Below, piece after piece: positions 46,528 through 61,194 of a stretch of 64,000 nt of DNA. Position 1 is the first letter of the stretch, and the number at the start of each line of letters is the position of its first letter. Position numbers and translations under genes: made by a program. Under the pieces are notes generated by a model. It was not told where the DNA came from. It was given only the letters and a program-made list of their open reading frames with translations, and did no database searches. Source of the stretch: a virus. Lineage: Duplodnaviria; Heunggongvirae; Uroviricota; Caudoviricetes. The DNA is taken from positions 448,001-512,000 of IMG/VR virus record IMGVR_UViG_3300020045_008999; one strand, given 5' to 3'.

Positions 46528-46559
46528 AAAAAGAGTAAATGTATATTTACTCTCTTTTT
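46527..46559. terminator. Bidirectional terminator
   Basis: AAAAAAGAGTAAAT-gtat-ATTTACTCTCTTTTT. Confidence 0.65.
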
Positions 46560-47023
46560 ATAATTTTAATATTATCTATCGAAAATACCCCAATCGACAA
46601 TATTTCAGATTCCAATTCTTCTTGTATAAATATGGAATCAAATCCATTTCCTAGAGCAGCATAAAATGCATCAACACAAGTCCAATAAGGCAATCCTTTG
46701 AAAATTTGATCATCCAATATATTTTGAATTTCATCTTGATCGCTATAATAATATTGCAAAGACTGCATGAATAATTCATAATGATTTGGATTTTCTAAGT
46801 CAAATGTATTTTTCAAATCAAGTTCAACACTATATAAATATTTACCATATTTCTTAGCATAATCAATGTTTTGAGTGAAGAACCAGGTAGGTATATCATT
46901 TTCAACATATCCCTTATTATTACACAAGCTAAATTCATCAAAAATATTATCGGAACCATGATAATATACATTAGATTTCAAAAATACATTAGCATACTCA
47001 TTAAACGTAGTTAAAATAAACAT
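46547..47023 (-). CDS. ADP-ribosyltransferase-like protein (ART-PolyVal-like pattern)
   Basis: YYHGS, WFFT...YAKKYG..LYSVEL, GFDSI, VFSIDNIKII; N-terminus ..TTFNEY. Confidence 0.65.
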   Translation of the reverse strand: MFILTTFNEYANVFLKSNVYYHGSDNIFDEFSLCNNKGYVENDIPTWFFTQNIDYAKKYGKYLYSVELDLKNTFDLENPNHYELFMQSLQYYYSDQDEIQNILDDQIFKGLPYWTCVDAFYAALGNGFDSIFIQEELESEILSIGVFSIDNIKIIKRE

Positions 47024-49765: not shown

Positions 49766-50209
49766 TTATAGTTCGTTTAAATATAACAACCTTTCTTCTA
49801 TTATCATCAGCGTAGATTCAAATCCATCAATGATTGTTAGACTGATAATTGCATCATACCTATCATGAATAACACTAAACATATAAACGTAATCCCCCAA
49901 ATAATGTACATTGTAATATAAATTAGATTGTCCTGGTCCATAAATCGTAATACATCCATATTCCATCCCAACTGTTATGACTTCGAATTGTTTAAATTTA
50001 TTTAGAATTAAATCCGCTTCACTTTGATCAAATATTTCATATTCTAATATTAAGGCATCGTAAACTGAGTTAATATCATCATCAACTTCACCAAAATTAT
50101 ATTTATCATAACGTTCATTTATCTCAAGTAATGCACTTTCAACATAATTAGTACCGAATTGTATATTTGTAATTTTATTAAAATCTTTAAAAAATTTCAC
50201 GTACCTCAA
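49766..50209 (-). CDS. Family A paralog (1 domain), putative head-internal protein
   Basis: INERYDKYNFG, HYLGDYVY, IIDGFES. Confidence 0.7.
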   Translation of the reverse strand: MRYVKFFKDFNKITNIQFGTNYVESALLEINERYDKYNFGEVDDDINSVYDALILEYEIFDQSEADLILNKFKQFEVITVGMEYGCITIYGPGQSNLYYNVHYLGDYVYMFSVIHDRYDAIISLTIIDGFESTLMIIEERLLYLNEL

Positions 50210-50215
50210 TTTAAT

Positions 50216-50578
50216 TTATAATATTTTTATAGCATTAAGCAATGAATCAAATCCATCAATTATATCAATAGATACGACATGACTCGCCCTATGTTCACAA
50301 ATACAATAACAATAATCACCCAGGTGGAAAATCTCGTAAGTAACTCGATCATCTGTATTCACAATTCTAATAAATGCTATCAATGATGGTGTATTAAATA
50401 TGTCAATTGTAAATCTATCATCATCAATACTAATAATTTCATTTTGTTCGTCATCAGAGAATGAAGTACCGTAGTTATAAAATATCTCTATATAGTCAGA
50501 ATGTAGTGACATATCATTTGTAATTTTTTTACCGAATTCATATCTATCAAATCCTTCAAAAATTCTATAATATCTCAT
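50216..50578 (-). CDS. Family A paralog (1 domain)
   Basis: MRYYRIFEGFDRYEFG, HLGDYCY, IIDGFDS. Confidence 0.75.
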   Translation of the reverse strand: MRYYRIFEGFDRYEFGKKITNDMSLHSDYIEIFYNYGTSFSDDEQNEIISIDDDRFTIDIFNTPSLIAFIRIVNTDDRVTYEIFHLGDYCYCICEHRASHVVSIDIIDGFDSLLNAIKIL

Positions 50579-51336
50579 TAGTTAATTTTTATTTTCAAAT
50601 TCTCTATTACATCATCAATGTTATCAATTAACTCCGCGCACACTACCAAATCATATCGATCCATTGTTAATATTGAATAACAATAATCGTCTAAATAAAA
50701 TACATTATAATATTTAGCAGCACCACTATTATAATGTAATGATATAAAAGAATGGTTGGCGACATGTTCAACCAATCTAACATCAGTATCTATCTCATTT
50801 TCAATCAGACTAAACTCATTCACATCAAACATAATTCGATTACCCATTATCTGATTACAAATCGTATCTATATCGCTTCCATTTTCATATTTACCAAAAT
50901 CATATTTATCAAGTCCTTCACTCACTCTCAACCGGTTGGCAGCCGATTCATATCTATGAATAATTTCATCAATTGCATCATATACATTATCAAAAACTTC
51001 AACATCTACACCTCTACCGGCATATAAATTATATTCCGCAACACCAAATGAATAATCACCAAAATAATATAATTCAATCCCATTACCATGTTCTTCGATC
51101 GCAAGGGAACCTTTACTAATCACAATATAATCATAACTATCATTGGTTTCGGATGAGTCGTAATATGTCACATTTATACTCCTAACAGTTAATTCATTTA
51201 TAACAATTTCAACATCGGCAGCTTCAAATACTATCGCAATACTTCTCATATCTCGATAATTATTACCATTATCATCATTAGAATATTTTTTAACATCATA
51301 TTGATCGAAATCTTCAAATATTTTTATATATTTCAT
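50578..51336 (-). CDS. Family A paralog (2 domains)
   Basis: MKYIKIFEDFDQYD; internal VSEGLDKYDFG; YFGDYSF / YLDDYCY. Confidence 0.75.
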   Translation of the reverse strand: MKYIKIFEDFDQYDVKKYSNDDNGNNYRDMRSIAIVFEAADVEIVINELTVRSINVTYYDSSETNDSYDYIVISKGSLAIEEHGNGIELYYFGDYSFGVAEYNLYAGRGVDVEVFDNVYDAIDEIIHRYESAANRLRVSEGLDKYDFGKYENGSDIDTICNQIMGNRIMFDVNEFSLIENEIDTDVRLVEHVANHSFISLHYNSGAAKYYNVFYLDDYCYSILTMDRYDLVVCAELIDNIDDVIENLKIKIN

Positions 51337-52073
51337 GTGTTAAGTTTATTTTTAAGACTGGATATTAATGCATCTAGACCATCAAAGTTTTCCAGTTCAA
51401 TAACAGTGCGTGCACTACCAACCATGGTAGTTAGGTTATAGCAGTAATCACCCAAATAGCATATCATAAACCCATTACTGATAGATATATGATCCACTTC
51501 ACCACTATTATTAGGAACCCGATAAATATGACACAAGCCAGTTAACTCAGATTTTATTAAGTCGATATCCTCTTGTTCAAAGTTATTTCGTTGTCCCATC
51601 ATCAAATCCCATTCGGTTTCTAAATCAGCACCTGATATTTTAGTAAAGTCATATTTGTCAAAACTTTCATTTATATCTTCATCTGGATCCTCACCATCTT
51701 CATGTTCTATTATTTCAATAATATGCGATATGATACTATCTAAGCCATCAAATGGAATTATAGCCATAACATCATCTGAACTATCATCCATAACAGCTAA
51801 ACAATAACAATAGTCACCCAAAGAATATACGTAATAATACTCCCCCTCATCAACCAACACATCAATGAACATCGATCCAACATTTTTATAGTAATTCTCC
51901 ACCACATCTACATCATCATAGTTTATCGCAGCCTTTATATAAGTTATTTCATCATCAGATAAGTCAATTGCCAATTTAAGCATTTCCAGATATTGCTCTT
52001 CTAAGTCAGTATAGATTGGAACGCCAAAATTATATTGGTCAAAGTTTTCGAATAATTTTATATATTTTCCCAT
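51333..52073 (-). CDS. Family A paralog (2 domains)
   Basis: MGKYIKLFENFDQYNFG; internal INESFDKYDF; LGDYCY twice. Confidence 0.75.
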   Translation of the reverse strand: MGKYIKLFENFDQYNFGVPIYTDLEEQYLEMLKLAIDLSDDEITYIKAAINYDDVDVVENYYKNVGSMFIDVLVDEGEYYYVYSLGDYCYCLAVMDDSSDDVMAIIPFDGLDSIISHIIEIIEHEDGEDPDEDINESFDKYDFTKISGADLETEWDLMMGQRNNFEQEDIDLIKSELTGLCHIYRVPNNSGEVDHISISNGFMICYLGDYCYNLTTMVGSARTVIELENFDGLDALISSLKNKLNT

Positions 52074-53264
52074 TTATCGTTTAATATTACTTTTGTGTAT
52101 ATACCCATTATCCCACTTTTCCAATAATTCAATAAGTATCTCAACAGTAGATTCGAATGTATCAACTGTATATATAGCAATGATATCCGCTGGTTTGCGA
52201 TCCATAACTACCAAACTATAGCAATAATCGCCATGATAATGCATTGAAACACTCAATGGGTAGCTATGATTCAGTCTAATTGTTATGGAATTGGTCAAGG
52301 ATAAATTCGGATATTCTTTAATCACATATTTTTCTTCAAATAATTCATAGATCGATTGTATATCAGCAGCATCCAAATCCTCTATACACTCATATAAACT
52401 TAAATACTCGTGTGTTAAATCACCCTCACGAACACCGAAATCATACTGGTCGAAGTTTTCAAATAATTTCATATCAGTTTTACGAATATCACCACAGTTC
52501 TCTACTATTCCACCATGTGTTTTATCCCATTTTTCCAATATTTCTCTAATAATTTCAACAGTAGATTCAAAAGTATCAACTGTGTGTATAGCAATAATAT
52601 CATTTGACAGATTATTCCAAACCATTAAGCTATAGCAATAATCACCATGATAATACATAGAAACACTAGCTGCGTTATTATATTTCAACTCAAATGAAAT
52701 TGATCTAGTTTGAGCGGCCTTAGGGTACTCTTTAATCAAATATTTTTCACCAAATAATTCATACAAAGATTTAATATCATCATTTTCTAAAAGTACACTA
52801 GAGTCATATAGACCAGAAAATTCAAAAGACAAATCGCCCTCTCTAAGGCCGAAATCATATTGGTCGAATTTTTCAAACATTTTTATATTTTCCCATTTTA
52901 TCATTATTTGTTTAATTAATTCGATTGCATCATCTAAGGTATTCAACTTATGAATAACTAATGCTTCATAATTTTGCTCATCAATTTCAGATACCGAATA
53001 ACAATAATCACCATGATAATAAAGTGTCAAACTTAGGTGATCAATCATGGCAGATGCAATCACCATAGTAGATGTTGGTGTTTTTGTAGGATATTCACTA
53101 ATTACATAATTTCCTAACTCAGAATACACCAAGTGTTTAGCATCTTCGTCAAATGGAATTGATGCATGATATGCATGCATGTATTCCGAGTCATCACCAT
53201 TTACAAAAACAGTTCTTCCAAAATCATATGGGTCAAAGTTTTCAAATAATTTTATATGTTTCAT
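52074..53264 (-). CDS. Family A paralog (3 domains)
   Basis: MKHIKLFENFDPYDFG; internal KMFEKFDQYDFG and KLFENFDQYDFG; YHGDYCYS three times. Confidence 0.8.
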   Translation of the reverse strand: MKHIKLFENFDPYDFGRTVFVNGDDSEYMHAYHASIPFDEDAKHLVYSELGNYVISEYPTKTPTSTMVIASAMIDHLSLTLYYHGDYCYSVSEIDEQNYEALVIHKLNTLDDAIELIKQIMIKWENIKMFEKFDQYDFGLREGDLSFEFSGLYDSSVLLENDDIKSLYELFGEKYLIKEYPKAAQTRSISFELKYNNAASVSMYYHGDYCYSLMVWNNLSNDIIAIHTVDTFESTVEIIREILEKWDKTHGGIVENCGDIRKTDMKLFENFDQYDFGVREGDLTHEYLSLYECIEDLDAADIQSIYELFEEKYVIKEYPNLSLTNSITIRLNHSYPLSVSMHYHGDYCYSLVVMDRKPADIIAIYTVDTFESTVEILIELLEKWDNGYIHKSNIKR

Positions 53265-53632
53265 AATTCTATTTTTTTCAATGCTTCTATAACAGACTCA
53301 ATACCATCTACTATTGTCATTTTAACCGGCCTAGTATGTAACCACTCTTTATATACAACAGCATACACATAATCTCCTAAATAATAAACCGTCACGAAAT
53401 TTTCATGGTTTGTTAGTTTCTCTATTTTAACGCACACTTCACCATTATATGTATTCTTGGTATATACAAATATAGATTTCGTTTCGATATGGGTTTCAAT
53501 TTCCCGATATTCAGCAGTATCAAAATCTTGTACGTTTTTAATCATTTCAGCATATGATGCTGAAATATCATCACCATCATATGTTATAAATTCGTATCGG
53601 TCAAAGTTTTCAAATAATTTTATATGTTCCAT
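53261..53632 (-). CDS. Family A paralog (1 domain)
   Basis: MEHIKLFENFDRYEF, YLGDYVY, IVDGIES. Confidence 0.75.
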   Translation of the reverse strand: MEHIKLFENFDRYEFITYDGDDISASYAEMIKNVQDFDTAEYREIETHIETKSIFVYTKNTYNGEVCVKIEKLTNHENFVTVYYLGDYVYAVVYKEWLHTRPVKMTIVDGIESVIEALKKIEL

Positions 53633-53636
53633 AATT

Positions 53637-54050
53637 CTATTTTTTTCCCCATAAATTTTCGTGCAAACATTTTATTACATCATCAATACCATCACACACA
53701 AACAGTTTAACTATATTCTCACTAATTCGGCGAATACTTTCGGCTTTCTCATTATACATTACACCATATGTATAATCCCCCATATACAAAATATAGACAC
53801 AATTCATAATCCGTGGGCTTATACTTGGTGCAACTATGACACCGGTTATTTCGTTACCCCCAACACACAATATTCTCCGAGGACTTACATAATATTCATC
53901 GCCAAAATCTGCTTTAATAAGATCTATATCATCATAAGATATGTCTATAGCCAATTTACGCATGTCGTCGTATATTACTTCGAGATCTTTATATATTCTA
54001 CCAAAATCATATCTATCAAAGCTTTCATACATTTTTACATACCTACCCAT
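53637..54050 (-). CDS. Family A paralog (1 domain), first gene of the array
   Basis: MGRYVKMYESFDRYDFG, YMGDYTY, VCDGIDD; TTTAATATATA at 54055-54065. Confidence 0.75.
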   Translation of the reverse strand: MGRYVKMYESFDRYDFGRIYKDLEVIYDDMRKLAIDISYDDIDLIKADFGDEYYVSPRRILCVGGNEITGVIVAPSISPRIMNCVYILYMGDYTYGVMYNEKAESIRRISENIVKLFVCDGIDDVIKCLHENLWGKK

Positions 54051-54126
54051 GTTCTATATATTAAAAAAGATTTGGTATATTACATCCAATGCAGTATCTT
54101 TGTATTTGTAATTTAATATATATCAC

Positions 54127-54507
54127 ATGGATTTAGATAAACAATATTCTGAGATTAAAATTAAATTTGATAATGCGCGCAACAAATTGGCTGAGCTCGA
54201 AAATTCGATAAATTTAAAGGATTCCGACTACTTACTGATACGATCCAAAGATTCGGATAACTATTATATATTAGCTCACGCAAAAGACAAATCAACTATG
54301 AAATCCGGAACGAAATCAGTAGTTGCGGATTATATACGAAAATCTGGCATTGACCTTGATAGGATCAACGGCATAGAATTAATTATGCATTACCAACGAC
54401 CAAGAATTAAAAAATACGATCAATTTATAGATACTATAAATGATGCGGTGGATTCATTGGATGATAAGATAAATGACCTAGGATTCGCATTAAAAAATAA
54501 AAAATAA
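54127..54507 (+). CDS. Family C paralog (1 domain)
   Basis: DY...KSGTKSVVADYIRKSGID..I..I.LI; both promoter types upstream. Confidence 0.65.
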   Translation: MDLDKQYSEIKIKFDNARNKLAELENSINLKDSDYLLIRSKDSDNYYILAHAKDKSTMKSGTKSVVADYIRKSGIDLDRINGIELIMHYQRPRIKKYDQFIDTINDAVDSLDDKINDLGFALKNKK

Positions 54508-54511
54508 CACA

Positions 54512-55081
54512 ATGGACCATTTAAAAAAATTTGATGAACTAATTGAGCTTGGCGATAAAAGACACCGTTTAGCAAAAGAATTGAAGAAATCGGTTGAATA
54601 TGAAAAATGTGATTATAGCATTGCTAAAGTGGACTCGATGGCCTATGAAGTAAGGTTTGTGTTAATCCGCAAAAGTGACAAAAAACAATTAACACACGGA
54701 TCTGCTACCGAGGTTAAGAGATACATTGAAAGAATAGGAATCGATCATAATAATATATTTAACATAGACCTAATCGGTATTATAATAGATAAAGTAGAAC
54801 TAGAACCATATAAAAAATTTATAGAATTAGCTGACGAGGGCGCAAAGAAATTTCGCGAACTCAAAGATTCTAAAATGTTTCATGATGCCGATTATGTAGT
54901 AATCAAGGACGGCCTACCTGGTCATTTCAAATTGATTGATACCAAAACCAGTACTATTAAAACATCCGGTACCCCATCTCGTATTCGAAGTTACCTGAAT
55001 CTGAGAAAAATAGACAAATCAGCAGTTTTTAAATACGAATTAATTGAAATTCAAGCTAAGAAACCTAATCAAAACGGTTAG
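54512..55081 (+). CDS. Family C paralog (2 domains)
   Basis: MDHLKKFDE; THGSATEVKRYIERIGID and TSGTPSRIRSYLNLRKID. Confidence 0.65.
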   Translation: MDHLKKFDELIELGDKRHRLAKELKKSVEYEKCDYSIAKVDSMAYEVRFVLIRKSDKKQLTHGSATEVKRYIERIGIDHNNIFNIDLIGIIIDKVELEPYKKFIELADEGAKKFRELKDSKMFHDADYVVIKDGLPGHFKLIDTKTSTIKTSGTPSRIRSYLNLRKIDKSAVFKYELIEIQAKKPNQNG

Positions 55082-55091
55082 ATAACAAAAG

Positions 55092-55122
55092 AAAAAAGAA
55101 GAGTAATATACTCTTCTTTTTT
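55092..55122. terminator. Bidirectional terminator
   Basis: AAAAAAGAAGAGTA-ata-TACTCTTCTTTTTT. Confidence 0.8.
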
Positions 55123-55137
55123 CGTTTATATTAATGA

Positions 55138-57328: not shown

Positions 57329-57355
57329 TATATAATAAAAGTTATGTATGAAAAA

Positions 57356-57754
57356 ATGAAACATTTGAAACGGTTCAATGAAAATTTAGTAATTATTTTG
57401 CCCGAAGATGGTTCATATACCAAAATAAATAACGATCAATTTATTCAATTTAATAAAAATTATAAAAAAACTACAGATTGCGATATTGTAATTCAAACAG
57501 AAATTAATCGTTTTTTTAAAGCAGCTTCATCTAATGCAATGATGACTTATTCCAAAACAACTGATCCCAATAGAATACGTTTAGGTAATCCAGATGTGTC
57601 GGTAATTAATATAGATTTATACGATGATAACTGGATAATTATTTACTATTATAGAATAGATGGTTTATTAATGGAATTTTATCTATGTGATGGCGAATAT
57701 GGTATAATCCAGTTCACCAATGACTATATTGAAAATAAAAATATTATTATATAA
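57356..57754 (+). CDS. Family B paralog (1 domain), putative head-internal protein
   Basis: MKHLKRFNE, LPEDGSYTKI, DNWI, YLCDGEYG. Confidence 0.75.
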   Translation: MKHLKRFNENLVIILPEDGSYTKINNDQFIQFNKNYKKTTDCDIVIQTEINRFFKAASSNAMMTYSKTTDPNRIRLGNPDVSVINIDLYDDNWIIIYYYRIDGLLMEFYLCDGEYGIIQFTNDYIENKNIII

Positions 57755-57842
57755 AAAAACACATCACAATTATTATAACTATATATTACCAAAACCTAAA
57801 CTGATTAAACATATTTAATATATAACAAAAGCTAAATATGGG

Positions 57843-58580
57843 ATGATATATTTAAAAGGATTCAATGAAAGTTTAGAAAATTTACCACCTGATGGTGGAT
57901 ATTTAAAGTTAAGTTCAAATGAAATGAAAAGTTTCAGAGAACACTACAAAGTGGTAGAATATAATACTACTACTTATGCATATGCGTATAGTATGTTTGA
58001 AGAAAAATGGTTTAAAAAAATTAACCACGAAGACATTTGGTTGGATATTGATCTATTGAGTGATAATTGGATAGATGTCGAAATACAAATACAGTCGGAA
58101 CTAATGTTTTTTTTATGTGATGGTAGTGATGGATTGGAGAAATTATGTGATGACTTTGCTAAATTTATACCAGGAAAATCAATAACATCAGAAATAAACG
58201 AAAATACAACATACTCATTTCCAAATACCGGAAACTATACTAAGTTAAACCCTGATCAATTTGTGGATTTTTCAGACACATACAAACGGATTCATCATTA
58301 TGCGAATAATGTATATCATCCATTAATTGATATTTTTTTCGAAAAAGTAGTAAACGAATTACCCACTAATTCAGTATTAGTAAAAACACCAACTATGGTA
58401 AAATTTAAACAACGAAATCATACTGTAGTCAGTGTGGATTTTTATGAAGATGATTGGGTAGTGTTTAACTATTACAACTTCTTACTAGATAGTGCAATAA
58501 ACTACTATCTATGTGATGGTGAGGACGGTATAATTAAATTTTCAGCAGACTGGGATAAAAATAAACATGACATCAAATGA
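57843..58580 (+). CDS. Family B paralog (2 domains)
   Basis: MIYLKGFNES; internal INEN; LCDG twice. Confidence 0.75.
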   Translation: MIYLKGFNESLENLPPDGGYLKLSSNEMKSFREHYKVVEYNTTTYAYAYSMFEEKWFKKINHEDIWLDIDLLSDNWIDVEIQIQSELMFFLCDGSDGLEKLCDDFAKFIPGKSITSEINENTTYSFPNTGNYTKLNPDQFVDFSDTYKRIHHYANNVYHPLIDIFFEKVVNELPTNSVLVKTPTMVKFKQRNHTVVSVDFYEDDWVVFNYYNFLLDSAINYYLCDGEDGIIKFSADWDKNKHDIK

Positions 58581-59392
58581 AGCATATAATATCATTCGGA
58601 AAATTAAACGAATCCAATCACATTTATTTGCCGGCTGATGGTGATTATAAAGAATTAAATCAATCTGAGTACAATTCTTTTTTAACACAATACCCTACAT
58701 GTAAATTAGATATTACGAACTCTGCTATACTTTTAGATACTTTACAGGCATTAGCTGAAAAATGTGTTGGTGCAGCAATCAGCAATAGAGGTGGTAGTTT
58801 ATCATATAGAATCCAATCTATTACACATTGGATTGACATCGATATGCGAACAGATAACTGGTTTGCAATTGACGCTCAAGTATTATCTGATACATATAAA
58901 TACATATGTGACGGGGAAGACGGGCTTAATAAATTTATTGAAGATTTTACTGGCATTATGCCAATGGTTAAATCAATGCCTATAAAAGAATCATTGAATA
59001 ATGTCTGGCCAGCAGATGGCAAATATTCTAAATTGACCGGTGCCCAATATATTGAATTCAAAGGGTTATGTACTTACCAGTATGAAAAAGATTCAAATAA
59101 ATTAATAGTTGATTCTATTAGTTTCATTTCTAAATTGTTTTCAGATGAAAATTGTAGAATTAACCCAACAAGAAGAAGCATTGTTTTTGATACACAATAC
59201 AAATCAATGAAAATATATGGTGTGCCACATGTGGATTCTTGGTTCATATTTAGGATCATGACATTTGACACCAACCACCCAGGTAATATAGGGGCAGGTC
59301 AACCCACATCCATAGACTTATACCTATGTGATGGTGAAGACGGTGTAACTGAATTTTTGAAAGATTGTAGAGAAATAATAGAAAATACATAA
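58577..59392 (+). CDS. Family B paralog (2 domains)
   Basis: MKHIISFGKLNES; internal IKES; CDGEDG twice. Confidence 0.75.
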   Translation: MKHIISFGKLNESNHIYLPADGDYKELNQSEYNSFLTQYPTCKLDITNSAILLDTLQALAEKCVGAAISNRGGSLSYRIQSITHWIDIDMRTDNWFAIDAQVLSDTYKYICDGEDGLNKFIEDFTGIMPMVKSMPIKESLNNVWPADGKYSKLTGAQYIEFKGLCTYQYEKDSNKLIVDSISFISKLFSDENCRINPTRRSIVFDTQYKSMKIYGVPHVDSWFIFRIMTFDTNHPGNIGAGQPTSIDLYLCDGEDGVTEFLKDCREIIENT

Positions 59393-61194
59393 TGAAGTAT
59401 ATTAAAAAATTTATTAAAATCAATGAGTCTATTGATCATTTATTACCAGAAGAGGGTGGATATGCTAAACTAGGCTATCAAGAACACGGTTTATTCAGCA
59501 TCAGTTACCCAATTGATTACCAATACGATCTTCGTAGTGATATTTTAATGGATTCAATCAAAACCATGGCCGCGTTATGTGGTGATCCAGATTACCAATC
59601 AAGGACACATCTACCTCGCTTGGTATACAAGATTAATCATGATGAATCCTATGTAGATTTAAAGATGCATATGGATAATTGGATCGTTGTGACCAATCAA
59701 TATAGGGATGAGAATCATTATTTTATATGCGATGGTGAAGAAGGACTGAGTAAATTCATCAAACATTGGAATTATAATATTAGAAATAATAAAAACAATT
59801 TAACAATTTTAGAATCAGTTGACTACTTATTACCACCGGACAACAGTTACACCAGAGTAGGTGATACCAGATTTGCTGAATTTGTAAAAGAATACCCTTA
59901 TATAGAAGACGATACGTTAACACCAGAATTGAAAGATGTGATGCGAGTAATATATGAAAAATGTAGTGATGAAAATGCACATCTATCAAAGCGTGAAGCA
60001 TTATGTTCATATGTGACACCAAGTGAAAATCTATGGATTACTGCAACCGCCTCTGCACATACTGATAACTGGTATTCAATTAAATTTAAACTCGATAGTA
60101 TATATGTAAATCATGCGGCATATTACATTTGTGATGGTATTTCGGGTCTGGAAGAATTCTCACAGGACTGGACCGGATCACACCTTATACAAATTGACGA
60201 AAGTGTCTCTTATCTACCAGAAGGATCTTATTCGAAACTAGATGAAACCGACTTATTAAATTTCATAAATACCTATGGGAAACCACGTATCAATTTAGAG
60301 CTAATGGCGGAATTCAAATCTTATCTAAATACTAATGATATTATAATTATAGACCAAATATCTAGGAATGAGATTATCATAGTAGTACATGGTATGAAAA
60401 TAGCAACTAGTATTTCAGAACATACTGATATGTGGATTTCCATCGTTTATGGTAAAGATTTTTATATTTGTGATCAAGAAGCGGGAATGTATGAGTTATT
60501 CGATATGTTATTCAATAATCGTGTTTTAGAAAACGCTTCTTATTTACCAACCGGATTGTACTCAGAAATTAATGCAGATGATTGGACTAATTTCTTACTA
60601 ACATTTGGTACTGGTGACGTTGATAAACATACGATCGATACATTACTAGTTTATGCTAAAAGTATTGACATAGAACCAACTATTAAAAGCTATAATTATG
60701 GTTTCACACGACCAAATGGCGAACAGTTTTACGCAAGCGTATACAAACATGATGATCACTGGATAAGTGTACTAACATCCGATCGTGGCTTATTTTTATG
60801 TGACCAAGAAGATGGAATGATTGCTCTTTTCAGAGATGTTTTAATGCCAAATGAAAAAAATAACGAAACAATGATAACAGAAAGTATAGAAGACGACGTA
60901 GAAGATGGTAGCTATTTAGAAATTGATAGCGACGATGTTTTAAAAATATGGAAAGATTATGGACCATCGTCTTTTGATATAACTGAAATTGAACAATTAG
61001 CAGATACACTTGGTAAGGAATATTCAATCAATCGTTTTGAAAAAGGTAATATAATAACAATATATAGTCATTCACGACACGAGTCCTCACAGGTGTGTAA
61101 ATTCGATGATGGTTGGTTCATTTGTAATAATGAACCAGATGCAAATTTCCTTTGTGATCAAATTGCGGGTGTGATTCAATTTATTAAATTATAA
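59392..61194 (+). CDS. Family B paralog (5 domains)
   Basis: MKYIKKFIKINES; internal ILES, IDES, VLEN, ITES; CD(G/Q) five times. Confidence 0.8.
   Translation: MKYIKKFIKINESIDHLLPEEGGYAKLGYQEHGLFSISYPIDYQYDLRSDILMDSIKTMAALCGDPDYQSRTHLPRLVYKINHDESYVDLKMHMDNWIVVTNQYRDENHYFICDGEEGLSKFIKHWNYNIRNNKNNLTILESVDYLLPPDNSYTRVGDTRFAEFVKEYPYIEDDTLTPELKDVMRVIYEKCSDENAHLSKREALCSYVTPSENLWITATASAHTDNWYSIKFKLDSIYVNHAAYYICDGISGLEEFSQDWTGSHLIQIDESVSYLPEGSYSKLDETDLLNFINTYGKPRINLELMAEFKSYLNTNDIIIIDQISRNEIIIVVHGMKIATSISEHTDMWISIVYGKDFYICDQEAGMYELFDMLFNNRVLENASYLPTGLYSEINADDWTNFLLTFGTGDVDKHTIDTLLVYAKSIDIEPTIKSYNYGFTRPNGEQFYASVYKHDDHWISVLTSDRGLFLCDQEDGMIALFRDVLMPNEKNNETMITESIEDDVEDGSYLEIDSDDVLKIWKDYGPSSFDITEIEQLADTLGKEYSINRFEKGNIITIYSHSRHESSQVCKFDDGWFICNNEPDANFLCDQIAGVIQFIKL

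Follow-up and report, generated by a model that had tools for sequence, protein, structure and literature searches.

Tandem-domain proteins in a 597-kb megaphage: candidate precursors for a T4-type prohead protease

Why does a phage keep, side by side, seven genes that encode eleven diverged copies of one small domain, and are their products destined for the head? This question is raised by array A, a set of seven packed, co-oriented open reading frames (ORFs) on the minus strand at 49766-54050 of a 64,000-nucleotide stretch of viral DNA (the window), which covers positions 448001-512000 of the 596,785-bp IMG/VR virus record IMGVR_UViG_3300020045_008999 (coordinates in the record are given as G000), estimated to be 98% complete. 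The UvsX protein of this record is closest (44-54% identity) to those of the 634-735-kb huge phages LR756502, LR745206, LR756504 and LR756501, and the phage is therefore regarded as a megaphage related to the 'Mahaphage' huge phages rather than a T-even. A first-pass annotation of the window had proposed that the array A proteins are packaged in the head and cut there by a gp21-like protease. What can be upheld of this proposal lies at the level of sequence, namely a T4-type head module, a matching site motif, a shared leader and a promoter-like motif. On this basis we consider it on balance probable that the array A products are capsid-targeted precursors which are trimmed and split by the prohead protease.

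The architecture of the array, as first described, was confirmed by ORF listing, motif mapping and profile search. Splitting at the recurring start motif yields 11 domain copies, distributed over genes A to G as 1, 1, 3, 2, 2, 1 and 1. The domain is ~115-135 amino acids (aa) long, and the copies, which are 21-35% identical to the first one, align over ~124 core columns. Five columns are invariant among the 11 copies (E8, D11, Y13, D86 and Y87, the last two within the GDY motif) and four more are nearly so (F15, G85, Y89 and D108); the diversified copies thus combine conserved scaffold motifs with variable segments. A profile built from the 11 copies recovered two further copies in the same genome (G000 345308-345628 and 568753-569094; E 1.7e-13 and 2.3e-12) and matched 73 metagenomic cluster representatives in a library of 1.8 billion proteins; 43 of these representatives reached E<=1e-10, and the homologous proteins contain between one and four domains. 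These matches indicate that the repeat is not a product of chance and that the family extends beyond this genome.

All genes of the array lie on the minus strand, and neighbouring ORFs overlap or abut through ATGA, TAATG or TAAATG. A promoter-like motif at 54055-54064, TTAATATATA, precedes the ATG of gene A (53637-54050, 137 aa) by 4 nt. The product of gene A is a single-domain protein with the leader MGRYVKMYE|S, where the bar marks the border under discussion. Gene B (53261-53632, 123 aa, one domain) has the leader MEHIKLFE|N, and its stop overlaps the start of gene C (ATGA). Gene C (52074-53264, 396 aa) carries the leader MKHIKLFE|N and three domains, C1 (52893-53264), C2 (52479-52892) and C3 (52077-52478). 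Two domains each are encoded by gene D (51333-52073, 246 aa; D1 51684-52073, D2 51336-51683) and gene E (50578-51336, 252 aa; E1 50935-51336, E2 50581-50934). Gene F (50216-50578, 120 aa) is again a single-domain gene, with the leader MRYYRIFE|G, as is gene G (49766-50209, 147 aa), which has a TTG or GTG start and no ATG; here a degenerate first leader is followed by an intact LLEINE|RYDKYNFG. Genes B and C share an almost identical stretch of ~48 nt around their starts (53595-53650 and 53225-53280, minus strand), 14 nt of which precede the ATG; this points to recent recombination or duplication within the array.

Efforts to place the domain in a known family were uniformly negative. The route suggested by the first-pass annotation (domain splitting, alignment, a hidden Markov model (HMM) and structure prediction with Foldseek) led to no characterised family and no clear structural neighbour. 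Sequence searches of Pfam, PHROG, NCBIfam, PADLOC and the PDB returned no family for any of the seven proteins. In the PHROG and Pfam scans nothing at E<0.003 linked them to the T4 internal protein families, and in the Pfam scan PF12699, the head paralogue family A of phiKZ and SPN3US, matched none of the seven above threshold. AlphaFold2 gave a confident single-domain model (predicted local distance difference test (pLDDT) 80.7, predicted template modelling score (pTM) 0.78) comprising two helices, an antiparallel sheet of five strands and a C-terminal helix. With this model, Foldseek found nothing at E<=0.001 in the PDB or BFVD, a wide VIA-align structure search peaked at Z 6.9, which is background level, and the ESM Atlas offered only unnamed clusters. 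Array A had no match among 50,697 phage records by blastn or tblastn, a profile search detected no family A in the four related huge-phage genomes named above, and pattern matches in three IMG/VR and two JGI metagenome scans were not confirmed by tblastn. Judged by its sequence, the array defines what appears to be a new family of ~120-aa domains.

The case for proteolytic processing rests on the borders of this domain. The N-terminal consensus of the homologues is MK[YH][IL]K[LM][FY]E[NS]FD[RKQ]Y[DE]FG, and in ~14 homologues an extended leader is set apart from the domain, as in MKYIKDINKFELVTE|SVGIYDFG. Glu occupies P1 at all 65 N-terminal sites, with Leu, Ile, Met or Val at P3 in 64 of them. 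Across 20 internal junctions in family members, P1 is Glu and P3 is I/V/L/M without exception, P1' is Ser or Asn in 17, and P2 varies; the internal copies have lost MKYIK and retained the aliphatic-x-Glu. The recurrence of the start motif, including its Glu, at four internal junctions of array A was part of the original description, and all four were found as quoted: NIKMFE|KFDQYDFG between C1 and C2 (Glu131, codon 52872-52874), TDMKLFE|NFDQYDFG between C2 and C3 (Glu269, codon 52458-52460), DEDINE|SFDKYDF in gene D (Glu136, codon 51666-51668) and RLRVSE|GLDKYDFG in gene E (Glu140, codon 50917-50919), all on the minus strand. Measured against [ILVM]-x-E-[SN], three of the four were counted as fitting, the exception being MFE|K.

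A sister phage illustrates how such junctions come and go. There, C1 is a separate 126-aa protein ending in ...KWENI, and C2-C3 (79% identical) form a second protein with a full leader, so that a stop and a new leader stand at the C1/C2 border where the present phage has the fused form ...KWENI-KMFE|KFD. The fused and split forms therefore interchange exactly at the domain border. In the AlphaFold2 models, leader residues 1-8 of C1 have pLDDT <50, as do residues 1-20 and the linker 127-135, just before Glu136, of two-domain D; the pTM of 0.47 for the latter model implies that the domains have no fixed orientation. A disordered leader and junction fit accessible cleavage sites in these models; it should, however, be noted that any linker would look alike.

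A protease of the appropriate type is encoded at the edge of the window. The 5' end of its ORF occupies 1-412 on the minus strand, directly upstream of the capsid gene, and the remainder lies to the left of the window (G000 446370-448412, 680 aa in total). The proposed gp21-like identity of this ORF is borne out by phrog_207 (3e-23) and by BLASTP against T4 gp21 (2e-6), with PF03420 reaching 23 bits, below its 27-bit cut-off. The accompanying capsid protein belongs to the Gp23 family (PF07068, 85 bits, above cut-off) and the portal is of the T4 type (PF07230, 177 bits); phmmer searches of PDB sequences returned nothing for either the capsid protein or the protease. Within the protease ORF, the gp21-like domain, which takes up about the first 220 residues, is followed by about ten tandem 14-aa repeats, with the consensus I-[AS]-Y-S-E-Y-[IL]-A-E-[NS]-L-D-x-N, and by an acidic tail. 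The ORF contains 19 [ILVM]-x-E-[SN] sites where ~1.8 would be expected (P 1.4e-13), an excess unmatched elsewhere in the proteome; ten of the 19 lie within the repeats. The N-terminus of the protease also carries the motif (LIVE|N and SINE|N), and VLE|N and INE|N are the sole two [ILV]xE sites in that of the capsid protein. Cleavage after Glu is common to all characterised gp21-type proteases, and gp21 is reported to cut the T4 scaffold protein gp22 into short fragments (PMC5694885). In gp22, 16 [LI]-x-E sites occur in 269 aa, including IAEA, LAES and LAEN. We accordingly read the ORF as a putative protease-scaffold fusion, the scaffold part of which would display the enzyme's own site, aliphatic-x-E|[SN]. 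The motif at leader ends and junctions matches that of the 14-aa repeats, which supports the reading of these borders as prohead-protease sites.

The leader is not confined to family A. Its core, K[YH][ILVM][KR] (as in MK[YH][IL]K), is N-terminal on 13 non-family proteins compared with 0.67 expected. Further, h-N-E-[SN] is 4-fold enriched within the first 22 residues of proteins, and 17 proteins have leaders that end in this way. The leaders MIKKINEFLINE|N and MIVKNFVEFLNE|S resemble the MKTYQEFIAE|A of T4 IPII and IPIII, as read from the T4 ipII and ipIII genes. Ten leader proteins scanned against Pfam and PHROG gave no match. The same leaders occur in the published relatives LR756502 and LR745206, both of which are without family A; the sheath, baseplate-wedge and portal proteins carry no leader. 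One candidate explanation, that the leader is a DNA-level copy of the promoter (the MKYIK codons contain AATATATA), was judged unlikely because His replaces Tyr freely and because the internal junctions keep only the peptide motif.

Two other genes with such N-termini were noted. A stand-alone ART-PolyVal ADP-ribosyltransferase gene at 46547-47023 on the minus strand (E 1.2e-6, narrowly below the Pfam cut-off) bears the extension MFILTTFNE|Y ahead of the Pfam domain, together with a T[TA]ATATATA motif; its product may correspond to the packaged Alt of T4. At G000 288736-289098 on the minus strand, a 120-aa leader protein begins with MKHIKGINE|D... and continues into a Gly/Ala/Ser-rich stretch. 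As this stretch resembles the capsid segment after INE|N, the protein may be a minor head protein.

A promoter-like motif links the array to the capsid, sheath, tube and baseplate genes. K-mer enrichment in upstream regions separated two motif classes, T[TA]ATATATA and the Bacteroidota-type TAnnTTTG. The former precedes the capsid, protease and baseplate-wedge genes and the sheath and tube candidates. TAnnTTTG precedes five DNA-metabolism genes (ligase, helicase, nucleotidyltransferase, HNH and transposase), none of which has T[TA]ATATATA. Array A, the ART gene and a second array, B, described below, carry the T[TA]ATATATA class, which is found at 12 of 22 leader genes versus 122 of 827 (odds ratio 6.9, p 2e-5). 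Its spacing to the start codon falls into two groups, 4-6 nt (58 genes) and 17-24 nt (64 genes), and the shorter spacing implies almost leaderless mRNAs.

Taken together, these observations suggest the following course. Transcription would start from the TTAATATATA motif before gene A, and the genes appear to be translationally coupled. The 8-15-residue leader MK[YH][IL]K-x-[FY]-E would act like the T4 capsid-targeting sequence (CTS), bringing each precursor to the prohead scaffold core. The gp21-like protease would then cut after Glu in [ILVM]-x-E|[SN], thereby removing the leader and splitting the two- and three-domain precursors into 11 different acidic monomers of ~13-15 kDa, most of them beginning with [NS]-F-D-x-Y-D-F-G. 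More speculatively, the monomers would remain in the head and exit with the DNA. With a beta-sheet-plus-helix scaffold and hypervariable segments, they could, again speculatively, constitute a varied set of protein binders, for instance factors for host takeover or anti-defence. The first-pass annotation had described the proteins as very acidic and possibly nucleic-acid mimics. Acidic they are, with isoelectric points (pI) of 4.05-4.89 and a D+E content in the 85th-97th percentile of this proteome. Only the gene D product (pI 4.05, the most acidic protein of the proteome) is extreme, however. No mimic of the Ocr or ArdA type was found among the structural neighbours, the best of which (Z 6.9) is at background.

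Several observations weigh against packaging and cleavage, and some of them favour a different account, in which the proteins are cytoplasmic, never enter the head, and serve as paralogous small binders with host-takeover, anti-defence or immunity-like roles. The N-terminus would then consist of A/T-rich, start-friendly codons and the first structural element, and the multi-domain forms would remain uncut, like beads on a string. The strongly conserved E-x-F-D-x-Y-D-F-G block, part of the domain, begins with the border Glu, so that folding alone could explain why this residue is kept, and the C2 and C3 junctions resemble recent gene fusions in which a leader was simply retained. The cytoplasmic account has to be set against the hydrophobic-x-Glu-[SN] that is kept at internal junctions, where no initiation takes place, against the same motif repeated in the protease-scaffold ORF, and against the ~14 homologues in which MKYIK is set off from the domain by an extended leader. 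The leader could conceivably serve translation start, given that the leader codons are almost exclusively A/T-rich, that 25% of genes start with MK and that the promoter-like motif often abuts the ATG (at 4-6 nt in the 58 genes mentioned). Yet leader position 3 holds His (CAT) as often as Tyr, and AAC and GAC are frequent codons for Asn and Asp, which points to selection on the peptide; further, the sheath and baseplate-wedge genes share the promoter-like motif without having the leader. Array A also reads into an SbcC-like recombination gene (sbcC) in the same orientation with no predicted terminator between them, and T[TA]ATATATA is found upstream of uvsX and one HNH gene as well, so that the class can be called late-type and not strictly late. 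The weak fold likeness to small binders comprises the TriTu immunity protein (7zhm_D, Z 5.9, Atlas TM 0.46-0.56, with no toxin partner identified), PsiB (Z 4.7) and anti-CRISPRs (Z ~4), all of which are at background level. Two further concerns are directed at the cleavage and the cargo role themselves. INE44|N of the capsid protein could not be aligned to Glu65 of T4, as BLASTP places T4 LTE65 opposite ITS. The usual description of T4 IPII and IPIII is that of basic proteins that bind DNA, whereas the array A proteins are acidic. All in all, we regard the cytoplasmic account as improbable, though as the more serious of the two alternatives.

The other alternative accepts packaging and cutting and assigns the products a structural role in the prohead core, in an inner body, or as a buffer of charge and pressure in a very large capsid. 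In T4, core proteins such as gp67 are highly acidic, and gp22 has many [LI]xE sites; family A, too, is acidic. Core proteins such as gp67 and gp22 are reported to be degraded by gp21, and the heads of phiKZ and SPN3US contain large, variable paralogue families of unknown function (PMC5694885), both of which count in favour of this role. On the other hand, the four related 634-735-kb genomes keep the leader system and lack family A, which is thus not a core structural part, and strong diversification with a conserved scaffold and variable segments is more typical of target-binding panels. A structural role consequently strikes us as unlikely. We therefore retain, with the reservations given, capsid-targeted precursors processed by the prohead protease as the reading of array A. 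The broader generalisation, that megaphages load their capsids by means of cargo polyproteins in which one leader carries two to four diversified effector domains and the head protease cuts at their borders, is more tentative and falls somewhat short of an even chance.

The surroundings of the array hold further repetitive genes. Divergent from array A, two genes at 54127-55081 on the plus strand carry another small domain, present in three copies; the promoter-like motif before them, TTTAATATATA-N4-ATG, mirrors the one before array A, and a bidirectional terminator-like hairpin follows the pair at 55091-55123. The family B array (57344-61194, plus strand) comprises four genes with 10 copies of another domain of ~110-138 aa, patterned LP-x-x-G-x-Y ... 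D-x-W ... C-D-G, which shares with family A the type of leader and the aliphatic-x-E-[SN] motif at the borders. Homology between the two families was considered; with an hhalign probability of 5.7% (P 0.0067) for a collinear alignment, they are not demonstrably related. HMM searches linked neither families A and B to each other nor either of them to the array near 236-241 kb. Elsewhere in the genome, matches to family B DNA polymerase occur in two ORFs separated by more than 100 kb (G000 333267-334724, plus strand, and 442722-444281, minus strand), suggesting from the sequence a split polymerase.

If the favoured reading is true, the T4 principle of 'load, cut, inject' would extend to the largest known phages, with a polyprotein layer added. 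Gene fusion and fission would offer a cheap way to alter the dose and mix of injected proteins. The leader together with aliphatic-x-Glu-Ser/Asn would constitute a readable code for predicting the packaged proteome of uncultivated megaphages, and the array would be a source of candidate proteins that Bacteroidota phages inject to manipulate the host. No paper linking megaphages with capsid targeting was found in the literature searched.

The closest known system is that of T4, in which the CTS loads otherwise unrelated internal proteins (PMC3012670). As with IPI, IPII, IPIII and Alt, a short N-terminal leader ending in aliphatic-x-Glu is here common to otherwise unrelated proteins. Likewise, one genome combines a gp21-family protease with a scaffold in which the same sites abound and with a T4-type capsid and portal; the nearby ADP-ribosyltransferase has a similar N-terminal extension, which recalls Alt; and the locus, like those of the T4 internal proteins, varies between relatives. 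In contrast to T4, the array A proteins have no similarity to any T4 internal protein, several domains can follow one another in a single precursor, each border bearing a site, protease and scaffold are fused, and the phage itself is an uncultivated 597-kb Bacteroidota-type megaphage. The heads of phiKZ, 201phi2-1 and SPN3US offer a second parallel, as they contain large paralogue families of variable copy number with conserved N-termini and gp21-related cleavage after Glu. Their sites are A/S/G-x-E with long propeptides, however, as opposed to aliphatic-x-E-[SN] with 8-15-residue leaders here, and the literature searched describes no tandem-domain precursors for those families. A third parallel is with viral polyproteins cut by a virus-encoded protease, where one translation product contains several functional units with a conserved protease-type site between them, although the units here are paralogues of one domain instead of different enzymes and the putative cutting would take place inside the prohead of a dsDNA phage. 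Set beside these systems, the junction, or polyprotein, layout is the feature specific to this array.

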